Below the pieces are notes generated by a model. That model ran no database searches. It was not told the origin of the DNA and worked only from the letters and a program-made list of their open reading frames with translations. A program made the position numbers and the translations under genes. This document shows positions 18,896 to 63,146 of a stretch of DNA of 64,000 nt, one piece after another (position 1 is the first letter of the stretch; the number at the start of each line of letters is the position of its first letter). This stretch comes from Escherichia phage BP9: the sequence record PP488543.1; one strand, given 5' to 3'.

Positions 18896-19547
18896 TCTGC
18901 TCTTCCCCCCTACCACAAACGGCCCAGCCTGGCAAGTGGAATAATTGACTAGCCATCAATCCCACACACTGTACAAACATACATATAAAATAACTATTGC
19001 ATAATTTTTCATTGTGTGGTAGCAGGGCCATTTTTACACGTTTTTCCTTCCAAAATTGCACGTAATGCAGCATTTGCACAAAATTTAACCTTATGCATAT
19101 CTTCAATAGCTTGTCAACAACTAAAAATCTTTATAAGTCATACACTTACATAACCACAAAAGCGTGTCCTACGTGAAAAATCGGGTGTAACTATAGCCGC
19201 CAGATCTCAGAATTTACGTACGCTCGCCATTCTATAGCCTGCTAAGCATTTATTCCAACCATAGAATAACGGAATAGTCAATACCTGCATAAAATAATTA
19301 TTCGTGTAAACTGCATAACATAAATCAGCTCAGGTGTCAACATTTTTCGTAAACAGTCTGAAATTGTCACGATAGGTTATCATAAACAGAGAAATCTTTA
19401 GTCGTCTAATGTTTACTGTACGTTACTATACTAACTGGAATCATTAGATGACTAATAGAAAGATAAGAAATAATTAACAATACAATTATTTTATCTGTAA
19501 CAATAAGGCAACTATGCAAACGAATGGCATGGCGCGACGGAGTCGCG

Positions 19548-19697
19548 ACATAATATAAAAGCAGTAACCATCACCCCCGTGATAGTTTGTCTGCAAACTA
19601 TTAATCAGATCATAGTTGCCTTATATTTAGTTAATCATGACATAACAAGCAAGGCAACTATAGATCTTCTAATAGTTGCCCTGCTTTTATATTATGT
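19548..19697. repeat. 16-bp inverted repeat pair flanking a ~120-bp core
   Basis: CATAATATAAAAGCAG (19548-19563) and its reverse complement CTGCTTTTATATTATG (19682-19697); flanked by direct repeats ATGCAAACGAATGG(C/T)ATGGC. Confidence 0.5.
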
Positions 19698-19791
19698 CAT
19701 AGATTATTAACTTGCTAATAGTTATCATGCAAACGAATGGTATGGCTTATCATTTCCATGTAAATAGTTAGCTATGTAAACTATTGGTCAT

Positions 19792-19861
19792 GTAAACAGT
19801 AAAGGGCGTGAACAGTAAGCAGGTGAATGGTAATAGCGTGAATAGTGACAGCGTAAACAGT
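19792..19861. repeat. iteron array: 5 x GT(A/G)AA(C/T)(A/G)GT at 15-16-bp period
   Basis: GTAAACAGT 19792, GTGAACAGT 19808, GTGAATGGT 19823, GTGAATAGT 19838, GTAAACAGT 19853. Confidence 0.55.
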
Positions 19862-19865
19862 CAGG

Positions 19866-19962
19866 CATGTCAATTATGTCAATCGTGTTTAATGTTCCCA
19901 GTATGTCAAAGGTGTCATGTTATGTCACTATTGTGTCATATTGTGTCAGTTATGTCAGACAA
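19866..19962. repeat. iteron array: ~10 x (A/T)TGTCA at ~10-bp period
   Basis: catgtcaattatgtcaatcgtg...gtatgtcaaaggtgtcatgttatgtcactattgtgtcatattgtgtcagttatgtcag. Confidence 0.55.
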
Positions 19963-21372
19963 GTTTTTCTCCTCTTTGTCAAGTGCTGCATAAAAATTTA
20001 CAAGCTTGTATGGTAGCATTTTTGCGGCCCTGTTTACATTCAGGAGTGTATGTATAACCCTTGTTGTGTGGGCGTTTAGACGTCTAGACGGTTGGAAGTC
20101 TACAGGTCAATATCTAATCTATTGGCTGCTAACTATATCCCACACAAATAGTAAGAAATATAATTGTTATATGCGTAAACAGTAACCTATGTTATCAATC
20201 CATGTATGTATCGCCAGTGGTGCGCATAATGGGTATTATGTTAAATTGCCCGTAATGATAACTATTCTCACAATGATAGGTATTCTCATTCACCCCGCAA
20301 GATAGGTTGCAAATGTTGTGTCACTGTGTGAACGGCCTCGCCTATTAATTTGCCTCACTGCCTTGATATTTGAGAATTGTTATAAGAATGAGAAGTATTC
20401 CCATTTCGTCCGCCTGGCAGCACTCCAGTCGCTACGGCTCATAACAGGGCAGAACCAGTCCTATTCAGATATTTCTGGCTGGCTCTTCAGGTCTGTGTGG
20501 GAAAAGCCAACCCCTCCGGCGGCGGGGAGGGGGTCAATTAAAAAATTTACGTGGTGTATGAAGCGCTCTTCAGGTAAGGCATGTATTATGGGATGAAATC
20601 CTCTTCAGACAATGATATTTGTTGGTGTGATATTTGCTGGAAAGCCAGATATGACGGGACTCCCGGCGGGGCAGGGGTAGTACAGACAGGGAAAATATGG
20701 GGGATGTAGTTGGGGAAATTGATCAGGTAGGTAGAGTATGGAATATGTTACAGGTATGTTAAATAGGGAGGCTGAATATCTGTAAGATTTGTGTGTAAAA
20801 TCAAAGACTTAAGTGGTGTTGTGGTATTTTCTATAAATAATTCAGGTTTAATAGGTAATATTTGTTTCAATCCACTTTGTGTGGTAAACAGATTCAGATG
20901 AAATTGGTTTACAAGTGTATACATAATATACAAATTAAAGATACAAGAAACCCCCCTCCCCCTTCGGCTACCATTCACCTTTTCCTCTGACTGGTACTTA
21001 AACACTTATTCAGACTCTTTAGGTTATCACCCATATATCATATGGCAGTGACTGGTGTCCTCCGGCCCCTCTTTCGTCACCCGTCCGCTTCGCCATGCTA
21101 ATGCCATAGCCAAATGTTCGGTTGTTCACCCTGTTCACTCAGGTGTATCTCCATACCCTTCAAACCGAAGAGAACAGAAAACCCGAATTACTCGGTAAAA
21201 GAAAAGAGAAGAACTTAATTTTATCAGGATAGGCAAGAATGTCAAGGCATGACTGCTCACTAAACAAGCAAACAGCCATGTGTGGGAGGTAAGTTATTGT
21301 GGTGGTGGGAAATTTAGTTGAAAGATGTGTTATAGGTGCTTCCAGCACTTTAGCTGGGCAGCTAATTGTGTG

Positions 21373-21588
21373 TCAGTCCAGCGGTTCATCCTCTACTTCA
21401 CTGAAATCAATGTTCATGGTCTCCTCCCAACCATCGATCTCAGCACAAGAGTGGAGTTCTTTAGGGTTTACTCCCAAAGCCTCAGCAACAGAGTCTATAT
21501 TTAACACCTCTGGCAGGTATGATTCATCGAATTCAAGGTAAATCAGGCCACGAGTGTTGTCAGCTCCACCAAATATTTCTATCTTCAT
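21373..21588 (-). CDS. hypothetical acidic protein (71 aa)
   Basis: ATG 21588 after AGAGGAG; last gene of minus-strand block. Confidence 0.4.
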   Translation of the reverse strand: MKIEIFGGADNTRGLIYLEFDESYLPEVLNIDSVAEALGVNPKELHSCAEIDGWEETMNIDFSEVEDEPLD

Positions 21589-21708
21589 AAAATCTCCTCT
21601 GGAAATGAGAATGTGAACTGGGTTTATACGTTCCAATGCACAGGAATTATGCACGTTTGCCTCTTCAGGCCATGCTTTAGCATGAGGAACCTGTGTGGGC
21701 TCGGTGCT

Positions 21709-22122
21709 TCATAGTCTACCACCCCTGAACTCTTCGTGCTCAGGCATAATAGAGAACCAGATATCTACGATGTCTTCCCACGTTAGGTCATCAGCCTCAG
21801 GATCTACCTGGAGCGAAGATGGGGAGTCTTTAGAATCGAAGTTTTCCTCTTTAACTGGCTCAGTCAAGGGACATATAGTCACTCCTTTGGATGTCTCTTC
21901 AGATGCATGTGTGTTTATCATGTTCCACCCGTGAGTATTCCGGCAACAGCCGCTATGGACGTAATGATCATCAGGATCACCACCAAAACCTCTGACAATG
22001 TTTTCATTGTGTATCCCATATTCTCCAAACGATGTGTGGATACTATCACTGGAGCGGCAATGTGTCAACAGAAACGCCGCGAGGGTTTGGTTAAAATCCG
22101 AGCGTATGGTGATTTGGGTCAA
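21709..22122 (-). CDS. hypothetical protein (start uncertain, TTG in track)
   Basis: Longest minus ORF in a region with overlapping ORFs on both strands; weak support. Confidence 0.25.
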   Translation of the reverse strand: MTQITIRSDFNQTLAAFLLTHCRSSDSIHTSFGEYGIHNENIVRGFGGDPDDHYVHSGCCRNTHGWNMINTHASEETSKGVTICPLTEPVKEENFDSKDSPSSLQVDPEADDLTWEDIVDIWFSIMPEHEEFRGGRL

Positions 22123-22281
22123 AACGGACGTGCGTTCTCGCTACGCTCGAAAGATAGATTTGTTTGTAGGAAGCTCTTAAACGCTCTGTAATGAGATTAT
22201 CTGTCCAAGGTATGCAATCGTGCACCAGATAAAGAAAAGGACGCCACAGAGCGTCCTAGGTGTCTTAAATTTGATATTTTG

Positions 22282-25367: not shown

Positions 25368-25763
25368 TTACTGAAACAGTGCAGATAAATTACCTTCTGG
25401 TGGAAACTTATCTGCCAAGAACGGGGTCAGAACAGTAGCCTTCTGAAGATCTGGGGTCCACTCGTTGTTCAGAACATCCCAGTAGTACGCAATGTTGCTG
25501 TGTGGGTGCCGCATTACGAACTTTTTCCCTTCGTAGTCATCTGAAACCTCTACAGAAGAAATAACAACAGAATCTTCAAGGGTTTCTTCATAGAAAGATC
25601 CGCCTTCAAATTTCCAACGAGATGCAAGAGCCCCTGCCTTGAACGCTGCAGATAACGGACTGTCGGCAAGAACATACATTTCTTGCACTCTGTCGCTGCG
25701 ATCTTTGCTTCTTACGTTGTACACAGTATCTGAACTATACTCAACACGGTATAGGCTTACCAT
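25368..25763 (-). CDS. hypothetical protein (131 aa), paralog of 27576..27974
   Basis: Shared motif FV(M/I)(R/V)HP(H/D)S..YW.....(E/T)WTP. Confidence 0.5.
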   Translation of the reverse strand: MVSLYRVEYSSDTVYNVRSKDRSDRVQEMYVLADSPLSAAFKAGALASRWKFEGGSFYEETLEDSVVISSVEVSDDYEGKKFVMRHPHSNIAYYWDVLNNEWTPDLQKATVLTPFLADKFPPEGNLSALFQ

Positions 25764-26725: not shown

Positions 26726-26862
26726 TTAGAGGTCTCCTCAATTATTTGATATCAATAGCCGTAACCTAACACATTAACTACAACTGCGATTGCAAACATA
26801 ATTTCAAAGCATGCAATCTCTACATTTGGGACTAATTTCTTAATCACGCCCATTGTAGCACC

Positions 26863-27180
26863 TCATTCTCCAAAGTCAATTTTTACTTTGCCTTTCCCCT
26901 TACCTTTCTTTCCACCACATTTAGCCAGCTGACGTGCTGCAACATCTACCATACGGTCAGTTGCCTCGTAAGCATCACTGCCTTTAGCTTTGGCAATAAC
27001 TTCTTTTCCAGAAGTGTCAAAAATGAACGCCATAACTTCCTGGTGATCATTTTCAACTTTTACACTTACACGTGCATGATTTACAGAAGGATGTAGACGC
27101 TCCAGTTTTGACATTTTGTGGGAAATGAAAGACACCATACCTTCGGTGATTTCTACGTTGCCAGTGATCTCAATTTGCAT
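26863..27180 (-). CDS. hpf: ribosome hibernation promoting factor (HPF/YfiA) homolog
   Basis: MQIEITGNVEITEGM..KLERL..ARVSVKVE....GSDAYEATDRMVDVAARQL resembles E. coli HPF (MQLNITGNNVEITEAL..KLEQY..VYVVLKVE..GQDMYAAIDGLIDKLARQL); RBS GAGGAG. Confidence 0.75.
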   Translation of the reverse strand: MQIEITGNVEITEGMVSFISHKMSKLERLHPSVNHARVSVKVENDHQEVMAFIFDTSGKEVIAKAKGSDAYEATDRMVDVAARQLAKCGGKKGKGKGKVKIDFGE

Positions 27181-27267
27181 AACGTGCTCCTCTCAAGGAA
27201 GGGAGAATAACAACCATCTCTCTTTGAAAACAATAATACTATAGCTGAAGCGTTGTGTCAACAGTTT

Positions 27268-27575: not shown

Positions 27576-27974
27576 TCAGTTTAGCTTTTCTTCAACAACC
27601 CCATAGCTCGGGGCAGAGTCAAGAGCTTTTTGGTTTAAAAGTGGTGTAGCAGAATCTGCAAACGGTGTCCAAGTTTTTGTTCTGGCATTCCAGTAATGCT
27701 TCACTCTGGAATCAGGATGAACTATAACAAAAACTTTTTCGCTTGTCAACACATTGATTTCTTCTACACCCTTGCTGATAATTTCTCCGTCATAACCCCC
27801 AGTCTGGTATCCTTCGTACCAGGTTCTTGCATAGGCATAGCCAGCCTGCCAGCATGCAGCCTCCTCCGAGGTGGAGACTACGTAGAAGTCTTTCTCAAAT
27901 TCCGGAATACGCCCTTGCTTTACGCTCCAAGCTCCGCGAATTTTCATTGTAACTTTAAACAGTTTATTTTTCAC
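27576..27974 (-). CDS. hypothetical protein (132 aa), paralog of 25368..25763
   Basis: Shared motif FVIVHPDSRVKHYWNARTKTWTP. Confidence 0.5.
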   Translation of the reverse strand: MKNKLFKVTMKIRGAWSVKQGRIPEFEKDFYVVSTSEEAACWQAGYAYARTWYEGYQTGGYDGEIISKGVEEINVLTSEKVFVIVHPDSRVKHYWNARTKTWTPFADSATPLLNQKALDSAPSYGVVEEKLN

Positions 27975-27986
27975 AACGGTTACCCA

Positions 27987-28241
27987 TCACAGCTCTACAA
28001 TATCCACATCTGACCCTACCCCAAAGGCATAATAGGACTCTTCCCCGAAATAATATTCAGGTGCACCAGCGGTGATCAGGTCTGATCCCAAGATAAACAC
28101 CACGTTGTGGCCTACATAACTGTGATGTTGCCGCACAGGATCATCCCACGGCAACCCTTCAAAGTATACCGCAGGAACGACCTTTCCCTTCAGGAAGGAT
28201 TGTCCCAAGTAGACGTTAGAATCAAGAATTTTAACCTTCAT
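27987..28241 (-). CDS. small acidic protein (84 aa), MKVK family
   Basis: MKVKILDSNVYLGQ...DLITAGA...GSDVDIVEL. Confidence 0.5.
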   Translation of the reverse strand: MKVKILDSNVYLGQSFLKGKVVPAVYFEGLPWDDPVRQHHSYVGHNVVFILGSDLITAGAPEYYFGEESYYAFGVGSDVDIVEL

Positions 28242-28458
28242 GATCGTCCTCCACTATCTCTACATCCTCACCTAGGGCAAAGTTGTAGGTCCACTGACTG
28301 TCAAAGCATTCCTGAGATGAACCAGCTGCAATAAGATCTGCCCCTTTTATTTTTAAAAGGTCAGGGTAATCTTCGTTAGGGACAGCAGTAAACACTTTCC
28401 CTACTAAAGGCTCCTGACCAATATAGAAGCTTGAATCTAAAACTTTAACTTTCATCAA
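28231..28458 (-). CDS. small acidic protein (75 aa), MKVK family
   Basis: MMKVKVLDSSFYIGQ...DLIAAGS...GEDVEIVED. Confidence 0.5.
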   Translation of the reverse strand: MMKVKVLDSSFYIGQEPLVGKVFTAVPNEDYPDLLKIKGADLIAAGSSQECFDSQWTYNFALGEDVEIVEDDHEG

Positions 28459-31348: not shown

Positions 31349-31882
31349 CTACAGATGGTTGCTGATGGTGTCAAGAAAATTATCTCGTTCTTTCTCGGAG
31401 TTTTCACGGGTGTAGTTGAAAAACATATCTAGAATAACCTTATTGATATATTCCAGCTCCTCTGTGTTCAGGTACTTAGCAGGATCTACAATGACATCCC
31501 AAGTCTCATACAGACCGCACTCATGATACCCCCAACGCTGCTCAATTGTCAAGCTGAGTGGCAAATCTTTACCGTCACAAACAACCTTCCATCTACAAAT
31601 GCTGGTATCTGGTCGTATCTGTGCACGGTATACCTGTACAAAATCCAATTTGAATTTGAGGTACTCGTCATACAATTTAAGCACAAAGCTCTCGATTTGT
31701 GGAGACACTTTTGCAGCAAACTGTGCGTATTTATACTTGCACTGGATGATCTTTCTGCGTTTTGCAGTTAAATTTTTTGCAGCCAGTTGTTCTTCAGTGT
31801 ATCTCCATCTACGATCAACAAACGCAACAGGATCTTTGTCCCCATAGAGGTATTCCCAGTTAATCAGAAGCATACCTGTCAC
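31349..31882 (-). CDS. hypothetical protein (177 aa)
   Basis: ORF; no motif recognised. Confidence 0.5.
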   Translation of the reverse strand: MTGMLLINWEYLYGDKDPVAFVDRRWRYTEEQLAAKNLTAKRRKIIQCKYKYAQFAAKVSPQIESFVLKLYDEYLKFKLDFVQVYRAQIRPDTSICRWKVVCDGKDLPLSLTIEQRWGYHECGLYETWDVIVDPAKYLNTEELEYINKVILDMFFNYTRENSEKERDNFLDTISNHL

Positions 31883-32112
31883 TCCTCCACAACTTCAAGG
31901 CCTTTGCCGCCTCGTTCTGGTAGATTACTTAAAGACAGGTAATACGTATAGTCAGGAGAGATCCTGCCAGACTCTGCACCTGCAGCTAATAAATCTTTTC
32001 CCTTAACCATGACAACATTATCGTTTGCAGATAGCCGTTTTGCTTCCACAATTTTACCGATGCAGTCAACCAAGGAAGGGTATCCTAAATCTGTAAGAAA
32101 TTTAACTTTCAT
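31879..32112 (-). CDS. small acidic protein (77 aa), MKVK family
   Basis: MKVKFLTDLGYP...DLLAAGA...GLEVVEE. Confidence 0.5.
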   Translation of the reverse strand: MKVKFLTDLGYPSLVDCIGKIVEAKRLSANDNVVMVKGKDLLAAGAESGRISPDYTYYLSLSNLPERGGKGLEVVEE

Positions 32113-62206: not shown

Positions 62207-62281
62207 GCCCTGTTAGCTTAGTGGATAAAGCAGCGGCCTTCTAAGCCGTTGACACTGGTTCGAGTCCAGTACGGGGTGCCA
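62207..62281 (+). tRNA. tRNA-Arg (anticodon TCT)
   Basis: Hand-folded cloverleaf: acceptor GCCCTGT/ACGGGGT, D-stem GCTT/AAGC, anticodon loop CTTCTAA, T-loop TTCGAGT, encoded CCA. Confidence 0.7.
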
Positions 62282-62411
62282 AGTTCTTTTTAATGTAGCT
62301 TACTTTAGCAGAGTAAATCTTCGGCAAGTGGCGGTAACCACTTTACCGATACCTCATAGTTAGTGGTTAGAACACTAGCTATTTTAAAAAGAATTTAAAT
62401 ATTAGTATTTA

Positions 62412-62499
62412 GGTGAGTTAATTCCGTAGGGGTAGCGGGGCAGACTGTAAATCTGTTATCATTGCGATTCGGGTGGTTCGACTCCATCACTCACCACCA
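62412..62499 (+). tRNA. tRNA-Tyr (anticodon GTA), long variable arm
   Basis: Acceptor GGTGAGT/ACTCACC, anticodon loop CTGTAAA, T-loop TTCGACT, CCA encoded; D-arm irregular in hand fold. Confidence 0.55.
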
Positions 62500-62613
62500 A
62501 ATTTATATTTTTAGATGCATAAATCATACAGATAATGGCATTGATATTTATCGTCGTTTATACTAGTCACTAACTGCTCGAAAATCAGTGTCATTATCAG
62601 TATAATTTATAAA

Positions 62614-62704
62614 GGAGGGTAGGGAGCAATGGTGCTCAAGCGGTCTTGAAAACCGTCCCATTGAGGATGACTCGATGATGGTTCGATTCCATTACTCTCC
62701 GCCA
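62614..62704 (+). tRNA. tRNA-Ser (anticodon TGA), long variable arm
   Basis: Acceptor GGAGGGT/ACTCTCC, anticodon loop CTTGAAA, ~20-nt variable arm, T-loop TTCGATT, CCA encoded. Confidence 0.6.
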
Positions 62705-62802
62705 CATTGTTGACCTTGTAATTAAGCGAAAGCCGGAAGCAGAACCGGATTATCAAATGTTACAGTCGTCATCGCCGACTAGCAACATGGTCAACATACT
62801 GA

Positions 62803-62901
62803 GCTAGGTAAGCCCTTTGGCAAGGGCGAGGATTTTTAATCCTGAAAATAGACGAGGTAGTCGTTGAATACATAGGTGGTTCGATTCCACCGCCTAGCAC
62901 C
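62803..62901 (+). tRNA. aberrant tRNA-like element (99 nt; anticodon-loop TTT, oversized variable region)
   Basis: Acceptor GCTAGGT/GCCTAGC, D-arm GCCC/GGGC, loop TTTTTAA, T-arm GGTGG-TTCGATT-CCACC, but ~30 nt between anticodon stem and T-arm. Confidence 0.3.
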
Positions 62902-62906
62902 TTTTT

Positions 62907-62982
62907 GCTGATGTAGCACAATTGGTAGTGCAATTGATTTGTAATCAATAGGTTGCAGGTTCAAGTCCTGCCATCAGCACCA
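62907..62982 (+). tRNA. tRNA-Thr (anticodon TGT)
   Basis: Acceptor GCTGATG/CATCAGC, D-stem GCAC/GTGC, anticodon loop TTTGTAA, T-loop TTCAAGT, CCA encoded. Confidence 0.75.
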
Positions 62983-62983
62983 A

Positions 62984-63058
62984 GGCCCTGTAGCTGGAAG
63001 GTTCAAGCAAGCGACTCATAATCGCCAGACGGTGGTTCAATTCCACCCAGGGCCACCA
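62984..63058 (+). tRNA. tRNA-Met (anticodon CAT; Ile2 not excluded)
   Basis: Acceptor GGCCCTG/CAGGGCC, anticodon loop CTCATAA, T-loop TTCAATT, CCA encoded. Confidence 0.7.
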
Positions 63059-63069
63059 AATAGTAAATA

Positions 63070-63146
63070 CTCCGCGTAGCTCAGCTTGGTAGAGCGCCTG
63101 ATTTGGGATCAGGAGGTCGAGTGTTCGAATCACTCCGTGGAGACCA
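63070..63146 (+). tRNA. tRNA-Pro (anticodon TGG)
   Basis: Acceptor CTCCGCG/CGTGGAG, D-stem GCTC/GAGC, anticodon loop TTTGGGA, T-loop TTCGAAT, CCA encoded. Confidence 0.75.

Follow-up and report, generated by a model that had tools for sequence, protein, structure and literature searches.

A ribosome hibernation factor homolog of the HPF/RaiA family in Escherichia phage BP9 and its Vequintavirus relatives

The window analyzed here is a 64,000-nucleotide stretch of DNA from Escherichia phage BP9 (sequence record PP488543.1), read as one strand. It contains a complete gene for a 105-residue protein of the HPF/RaiA family; the gene, the two parts of its product and the signals upstream of it are listed in Table 1. 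The gene is on the minus strand, although the initial annotation named no strand, and the protein sequence quoted in that annotation, including the tail GGKKGKGKGKVKIDFGE, agrees exactly with the translation of the ORF.

Table 1. Location of the HPF-family gene, the parts of its product and its expression signals in the window
Feature	Coordinates	Strand	Evidence
HPF-family CDS, complete (ATG start, 105 codons plus TGA stop)	26863..27180	minus	ORF list, sequence
Folded core, residues 1-89	26914..27180	minus	AlphaFold2 pLDDT ~90; Foldseek top matches are HPF
Lys/Gly-rich C-terminal tail, residues 90-105, GKKGKGKGKVKIDFGE	26866..26913	minus	pLDDT <50; charge calculation
Shine-Dalgarno sequence GAGGAG, 6 nt 5' of the ATG	27187..27192	minus	Direct sequence reading
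Near-consensus sigma-70 promoter, TTGACA-17 nt-TATTAT, 11/12 matches	27233..27261	minus	Promoter scan

The promoter matches one that is annotated in phage rV5 as 'Sigma70-type promoter; P144', and it has the same relative position. The TTGACA box and an AAACTG sequence upstream of it are conserved in rV5, in phage DrSchubert, in the IMG/VR loci and in a lineage that is 64% identical (L005-L007). The gene is located within a long run of small same-strand ORFs that have no known function; the rV5 paper counted 88 such ORFs. The host-type promoter and this gene neighborhood suggest that the gene is expressed early.

A hairpin lies between the promoter and the real ribosome-binding site (window 27193-27226, minus strand) and is found at the same position in L002 and in the IMG/VR locus L004. 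It pairs a Shine-Dalgarno-like AGAGGG with an anti-Shine-Dalgarno-like CCCTCT. The hairpin is clear in rV5 and in L004 (-16.3 kcal/mol and z = -2.35 in the latter), is eroded in the window and in DrSchubert, and is absent from the divergent lineage. It was rejected as a conserved element, with z-scores of +0.7 in the window and +1.1 in DrSchubert that are no better than those of shuffled sequences.

On the other side of the gene, 9 nt past the HPF stop codon, starts a 33-aa hydrophobic ORF, MGVIKKLVPNVEIACFEIMFAIAVVVNVLGYGY (window 26752-26853, minus strand), which is conserved in rV5 (ORF145), DrSchubert and other relatives. Phage I29 annotates a 'putative membrane protein' in the corresponding 2-kb region, which may or may not be this ORF. 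A promoter-like sequence, TTGACT-16-TACAAT at 26879-26852, overlaps the start of the 33-aa ORF. The L005-L007 lineage does not have the ORF, and the gap there consists of a promoter-like sequence and a hairpin.

The surrounding region displays several other patterns. Some of the small ORFs around the HPF gene are paralogous to each other: the two at 25368-25763 and 27576-27947 (minus strand; 123-131 aa in their ATG-initiated forms) are 31% identical, and a trio at 27987-28241, 28231-28455 and 31879-32112 (minus strand; 74-84 aa) is 30-41% identical. None of these families is related to HPF. An ORF-poor stretch from about 18,900 to 22,200 separates two convergent blocks, with plus-strand genes to its left and minus-strand genes to its right, and corresponds to a 2.6-kb region of rV5 (104013-106618) described as 'non-coding'. 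This stretch includes a low-GC segment (33-36%), direct and inverted repeats around ATAGTTGCC that are clustered at 19,480-19,750, and a perfect 18-nt inverted repeat whose copies are 116 nt apart; Rfam has no matches between about 18,900 and 22,200. The stretch could be an origin- or terminus-like element or the source of a non-coding RNA. Finally, ARAGORN and Rfam disagree about a plus-strand tRNA cluster at 62,207-63,146. ARAGORN calls Arg(tct), Ser(tga), Thr(tgt), Met(cat) and Pro(tgg), together with a 99-nt 'tRNA-???' with a four-base anticodon (62803-62901) that has no Rfam support; Rfam has a tRNA at 62412-62496 for which there is no ARAGORN call, and at the gathering score it omits the Ser gene.

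The initial annotation described the protein as a phage-encoded homolog of HPF/YfiA, and this identification is borne out by curated HMM thresholds, by the predicted fold and by the phage context. The Pfam model PF02482 (Ribosomal_S30AE) matches residues 3-88 with 50.2 bits, as compared with a gathering score of 23.7 (E 4.4e-13), and TIGR00741 (HPF/YfiA family, yfiA) gives 50.0 bits, as compared with a cut-off of 40.9. In a phmmer search, residues 1-89 align with residues 1-89 of the E. coli HPF chains in PDB entries 2rql, 4v8h and 6h4n (E ~1e-12), and the alignment reproduces every block of similarity that the annotation had listed. When the window was searched by tblastn with E. coli HPF, the match was 42% identical over 88 aa (E 8.6e-15), and at the sequence level the similarity to HPF is far above chance; the identity of E. 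coli RaiA to the phage protein is 24% (tblastn). Two narrower NCBIfam equivalog models score below their cut-offs, NF007780 for HPF of the E. coli YhbH type (57.5 bits; cut-off, 125) and NF007654 for RaiA/YfiA (20.3 bits; cut-off, 158); by these scores the phage protein is nearer to the HPF model than to the RaiA model.

The predicted structure gives the same picture. An AlphaFold2 model made from five phage sequences has an overall pLDDT of 82.9; the core is predicted to have the HPF topology and the tail is predicted to be disordered. When the model was compared with the PDB by Foldseek, the top match was Vibrio cholerae HPF (4hei; TM 0.80/0.91, rmsd 1.1 A), followed by E. coli HPF (2rql and 6h4n_x), with TM values of 0.8-0.9 and rmsd values of 1.1-1.6 A across the V. 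cholerae and E. coli proteins. All of the best 33 PDB matches are HPF, RaiA or pY. It is therefore close to certain that the phage protein is a member of the HPF/RaiA superfamily. One candidate for a phage HPF already seen on the ribosome, PDB entries 9sda and 9t6h, was rejected; in sequence it is a typical short HPF of cellular type, unlike the phage proteins.

What the initial annotation implied about novelty did not hold up. The phage HPF homolog is already known, having been annotated since 2006 and both published and tested in 2019. The orthologous gene in the rV5 record (DQ832317) is named 'sigma 54 modulation factor', and dozens of other GenBank records name it ribosome hibernation factor, HPF, RaiA or S30AE. 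Mizuno et al. (2019; Nat Commun 10:752, PMC6375957) included the HPFs of the rV5 group among their virus-encoded ribosome-associated proteins. There is no discussion of the gene in the rV5 and BASEL papers, and our literature search found no functional follow-up on the phage HPF beyond Mizuno et al.

Some of the names in the databases are wrong. In APCEc02 (KR698074) the name 'sigma 54 modulation factor' is attached to an unrelated downstream ORF of 89 aa and the true HPF gene is called 'hypothetical'; this error was inherited by phage nomo (MN850578), which thereby has two genes named 'sigma 54 modulation factor'. In several records the HPF gene goes by the name 'ATP-dependent protease La Type I', and the propagated errors among the orthologs extend to the O177 and bov phages (OR0625xx, MT8840xx). 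In addition, 18 GenBank records (MG0656xx; e.g., MG065644, MG065690 and MG065672) are labeled 'Campylobacter phage' with Campylobacter jejuni as the host. They have the same HPF gene and are about 96% identical to the Vequintavirus region of the window (95.8-96.3% in the eight that were listed), and so they are probably mislabeled or co-isolated coliphages.

The DNA of the window region is 95-97% identical to that of Vequintavirus (rV5-like) coliphages, and its best match is DrSchubert (BASEL Bas50). The HPF protein is identical to bas50_0153 of DrSchubert (MZ501060, 'ribosome hibernation factor') and 97% identical to rV5 ORF144 (ABI79209), from which it differs at three residues (A33V, Y35H and N56T). 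Identities among the Vequintavirus orthologs are 97-100%, and synteny, sigma-70 promoter and tail are all alike; these are clearly the same gene. A tblastn search found the gene in 118 records, 117 of them from phages of the Vequintavirus type and one a Salmonella genomic contig. Of about 129 phage records that have an HPF-family gene of any kind, about 117 are Vequintavirus; jumbo phages and fragments make up the remainder.

Within the genus the gene has evolved under strong purifying selection, as judged from codon comparisons. The dN/dS ratio is 0.060 against rV5 and 0.018 against the IMG/VR locus L004, the latter at a dS of 0.69. These are pairwise values because the IMG/VR scan provided two loci, too few for a population-level test of selection, and dS against the 64%-identical lineage is saturated.

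Outside of this group the protein is isolated. A word-indexed search returned five close relatives, and an exhaustive HMMER search of 1.84 billion representatives was what reached the cellular ones. One relative in the latter search exceeds 50% identity, a 103-aa protein (P0004; 64%) whose gene occupies the syntenic site in a divergent lineage of Vequintavirus-like phages, on contigs of 15-137 kb. Small ORFs near the P0004 gene are 29-85% identical to their counterparts in the window, and so the HPF gene is about average in this respect. The second-best HMMER match (P0006), a 1,160-aa protein with nine repeats, was discarded as an artefact of scores summed over the repeats. The best cellular relatives are only 30-44% identical, and therefore either the capture is old or the gene diverged fast. 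This conclusion sits uneasily with the 'relatively recent' transfer described by Mizuno et al. (2019; PMC6375957).

Large myoviruses other than the vequintaviruses also have S30AE-family genes, namely the Cronobacter jumbo phage GAP32 and the Xanthomonas jumbo phage XaC1. These are independent acquisitions. A search with the Vequintavirus protein (E <= 1e-3) picked up neither homolog, and GAP32 HPF groups with sequences from Firmicutes (Mizuno et al. 2019, PMC6375957).

Among cellular proteins, E. coli HPF (YhbH) is also a single-domain protein of about the same length and the same fold and is 42% identical over residues 1-88. There are differences, however. The phage protein is one residue shorter in the beta1-alpha1 loop and one residue longer in beta3, and the helical KHKDKLKQH with which E. 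coli HPF ends at residue 95 is replaced by a glycine-spaced lysine tail, a tail that, as the initial annotation stated, has no counterpart in the host protein. Other differences concern partners. Short HPF works together with RMF, converting the 90S dimers induced by RMF into 100S ribosomes. The phage, in contrast, encodes no RMF partner, and promotion of 100S formation was not seen (PMC6375957). Searches by tblastn found no homologs of RMF or SRA in the window below E 0.1, and RMF has no match in 50,697 phage records. Nor does the window have further HPF paralogs among its 287 ATG-initiated ORFs of at least 40 aa (phmmer --max).

E. coli RaiA (YfiA/protein Y) has the same fold, belongs to the same binding-site family and, like the phage protein, has a C-terminal extension beyond the length of HPF; several phage orthologs carry the label 'RaiA' in RefSeq. 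In RaiA this extension occludes the RMF site and prevents dimerization. The two tails are unrelated in sequence, however, and that of RaiA is acidic (net charge -3), whereas that of the phage protein is basic (about +4). The long HPFs of Firmicutes, Thermus and others have a homologous N-terminal domain, and some of them have Val at the position of K80. The phage protein has 105 aa with a single Pfam domain followed by the tail, and so it does not have the C-terminal dimerization domain of the long proteins.

The residues that contact rRNA display a mixed pattern. We took the contacts of Gram-negative HPF from a 2025 cryo-EM preprint (bioRxiv 10.1101/2025.10.07.680626) and, after aligning the phage protein with as many as 41 cellular relatives, compared them in E. 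coli numbering. The positions that are kept are K26, position 29 (a basic residue), E44, E60, R83, Q84, K87 and K91. Two lysines are lost: K80, which is Lys in 32 of the 41 cellular relatives, is Val in the window protein (Val or Thr in the phage proteins), and K89, which is Lys in 31 of the 41, is Gly (Gly or Ser in the phage proteins). Further departures from the cellular consensus are M70 to Ala and T53 to Phe; K80, K89 and M70 are each conserved in about 75-80% of the cellular relatives. In a sample of 13 sequences K80 was invariant and its loss was considered a disqualifier, but this was softened when the sample of 41 turned out to have Val in three, which are judged from their sequences to be long HPFs of the Firmicutes type. 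P0004 keeps K26, R83 and K87, whereas its residues 84 and 91 are H and S, respectively. The two phage lineages agree at about six of the 12 contact positions, as compared with 64% for the whole protein, and so the contacts are no better conserved than the rest.

The beta1-alpha1 loop, which touches 16S rRNA in cellular HPFs (bioRxiv 10.1101/2025.10.07.680626), varies among the phages. The 106-aa form in V18, nomo and Murica has GNNVE, as does E. coli HPF, and the window protein and rV5 have GNVE, a difference of one AAT codon after window residue 8 (about 27157-27159).

The C-terminus of the phage protein, ...KCGGKKGKGKGKVKIDFGE, is 10 residues longer than that of E. coli HPF. An alternating-lysine pattern is common to both, with the phage version extended and spaced by glycines. 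The calculated pI of the phage protein is 8.7, as compared with 6.5 for E. coli HPF, and the surface of its core is unlike that of cellular HPFs. The DNA encoding the tail is a G/A-rich run, which is slippery and prone to frameshifts, and the length of the protein varies accordingly in Murica (99 aa), APCEc02 (101 aa), JEP1 (103 aa) and the IMG/VR locus L004 (104 aa); the tails of the first three are truncated or frameshifted. In P0004 the tail differs in sequence and is still basic. Therefore, it is the basic character of the tail that is conserved and not its exact sequence.

The published ribosome experiment bears directly on function. Mizuno et al. (PMC6375957) produced rV5 HPF in E. coli from pBAD24, and mass spectrometry showed it to be present in the crude extract. 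It was not detected in the purified 70S or 100S fractions, and the 100S ribosomes were unchanged. Co-sedimentation and 100S profiling are also the assays that the initial annotation had put forward as a check. The initial annotation had suggested that the factor could silence or protect ribosomes during infection and had named failure to bind ribosomes as evidence to the contrary; taken at face value, this outcome would count against the idea. However, the cells were harvested at OD600 = 1 and the ribosomes were pelleted through 500 mM NH4Cl, and the authors themselves named salt washing and growth phase as possible causes of the absence (PMC6375957). The ribosome table of the viral-HPF sample, with 71 proteins, contains neither the viral protein nor host HPF, RMF or RaiA, whereas in the crude extract of the same cells all three host factors were identified and scored about as high as the viral protein or higher. 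In the same study, the ribosome tables of bS21 and bL12 likewise list neither host HPF nor host RMF. The preparation thus strips authentic host HPF and RMF, and therefore the absence of the viral homolog is uninformative about binding; because the two host factors were lost as well, the published negative result has no positive control. Host RaiA behaved differently. It was found in the bS21 and bL12 ribosomes (six spectra in bL12) and was missing from the viral-HPF sample (PMC6375957), a hint, from single samples and few spectra, of competition for a shared site.

Taking these observations together, we judge that ribosome binding at the HPF site is the best explanation of the gene, and we hold this view with somewhat more belief than doubt. 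The gene product would be a phage-adapted, single-domain ('short') hibernation factor of the HPF/RaiA family, which may have been captured in ancient times from a gammaproteobacterial hpf-like gene and then fixed in the genus Vequintavirus. Host RNA polymerase would transcribe it from the near-consensus sigma-70 promoter as one of a block of small, presumably early genes. The folded core would be placed, like those of cellular HPF and RaiA, in the decoding region of the 30S subunit in vacant 70S ribosomes of the host, where it would overlap the positions of the A- and P-site tRNAs and of the mRNA. Binding would be through the retained basic face (K25, R28, R83, K87 and K91), which the flexible Lys/Gly tail would extend. 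As RMF is not encoded by the phage, 70S ribosomes with the factor bound would be expected and not 100S ribosomes, unless host RMF is present. As a consequence, idle ribosomes may be reversibly occupied and shielded, or the phage protein may compete with host RaiA, HPF and RMF during take-over, or both.

The rival explanation that survives best is that the phage has kept the HPF fold as a scaffold for something else. Stable ribosome binding would have been lost, and the protein would now have another role, e.g., in binding another RNA or in titrating a host partner or a defense or nuclease factor by which HPF-like proteins are recognized. This would agree with the failure to recover the rV5 protein on ribosomes and the unaffected 100S particles (PMC6375957), with the loss of K80, K89 and M70, with the unusual core surface and higher pI, and with the isolation of the sequence, for which, besides P0004 (64-65%), the closest of the 1.84 billion representatives is 44% identical. 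However, an experiment that lost host HPF and RMF as well cannot discriminate between the two explanations, and Val80 is also present in three cellular relatives, although these are judged to be long Firmicutes-type HPFs by sequence only. The contacts that are most conserved across the family (K26, R83, Q84, K87 and K91) are kept in the rV5-type lineage, and the strongly basic character of the added tail is suited to binding RNA. We regard such a change of function as possible but doubtful.

A second rival, that the protein is a potent general inhibitor used as a weapon to silence host translation early in infection, might be favored by the strong host-type promoter ahead of the gene, but we consider it improbable. 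A factor that blocks the decoding site would hit phage and host mRNAs alike, and proteins of the HPF family bind vacant ribosomes and not translating ones. Furthermore, cells that expressed the viral protein from pBAD24, from overnight pre-cultures to OD600 = 1, had normal 70S profiles and no reported toxicity (PMC6375957).

It is very improbable that the gene is a functionless passenger or a decaying pseudogene. The altered tails of Murica, APCEc02 and JEP1 and an early stop in YP-6 might be taken as signs of decay, but these variants fall within G/A runs that resemble homopolymers, and sequencing errors may explain them. Against decay, nearly all of the 117 phage records and the syntenic 64%-identical lineage have an intact copy of the gene, the dN/dS ratios are 0.02-0.06, and the promoter and ribosome-binding site are conserved.

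The least probable reading of all is the one in the original GenBank name, a sigma-54 modulation protein that regulates RpoN-dependent transcription; the name stems from the position of hpf in the rpoN operon and survives as a historical family name (in the Pfam title and in the records of rV5 and others), whereas all of the solved structures and retrieved papers place the family on the ribosome and nothing at the locus is related to sigma-54.

Returning to ribosome binding at the HPF site, a more specific version can tentatively be put forward, although we think it unlikely to be right. The phage protein may be a specialized viral variant in which weakened core contacts (the loss of K80 and K89) are combined with a poly-Lys/Gly tail, resulting in fast, salt-labile binding at the HPF/RaiA site. 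The phage could in this way displace host RaiA or HPF-RMF, or pre-empt defense or stress nucleases that act at the decoding center. The ribosome pool would thereby stay undamaged and could soon be used again for phage mRNAs. If so, the protein would be an 'anti-hibernation' or ribosome-guarding factor and not a silencer, and its first trace would be that, in the work of Mizuno et al., RaiA is missing from the ribosomes of the viral-HPF sample alone.

The phage is represented in the widely distributed BASEL collection, where its closest relative is Bas50 (DrSchubert), and therefore deletion and biochemical experiments are straightforward. Ribosome-associated genes that are carried by viruses bear on how phages take over translation, and through a hibernation factor of its own a virus would have a compact means of switching ribosomes off or protecting them.
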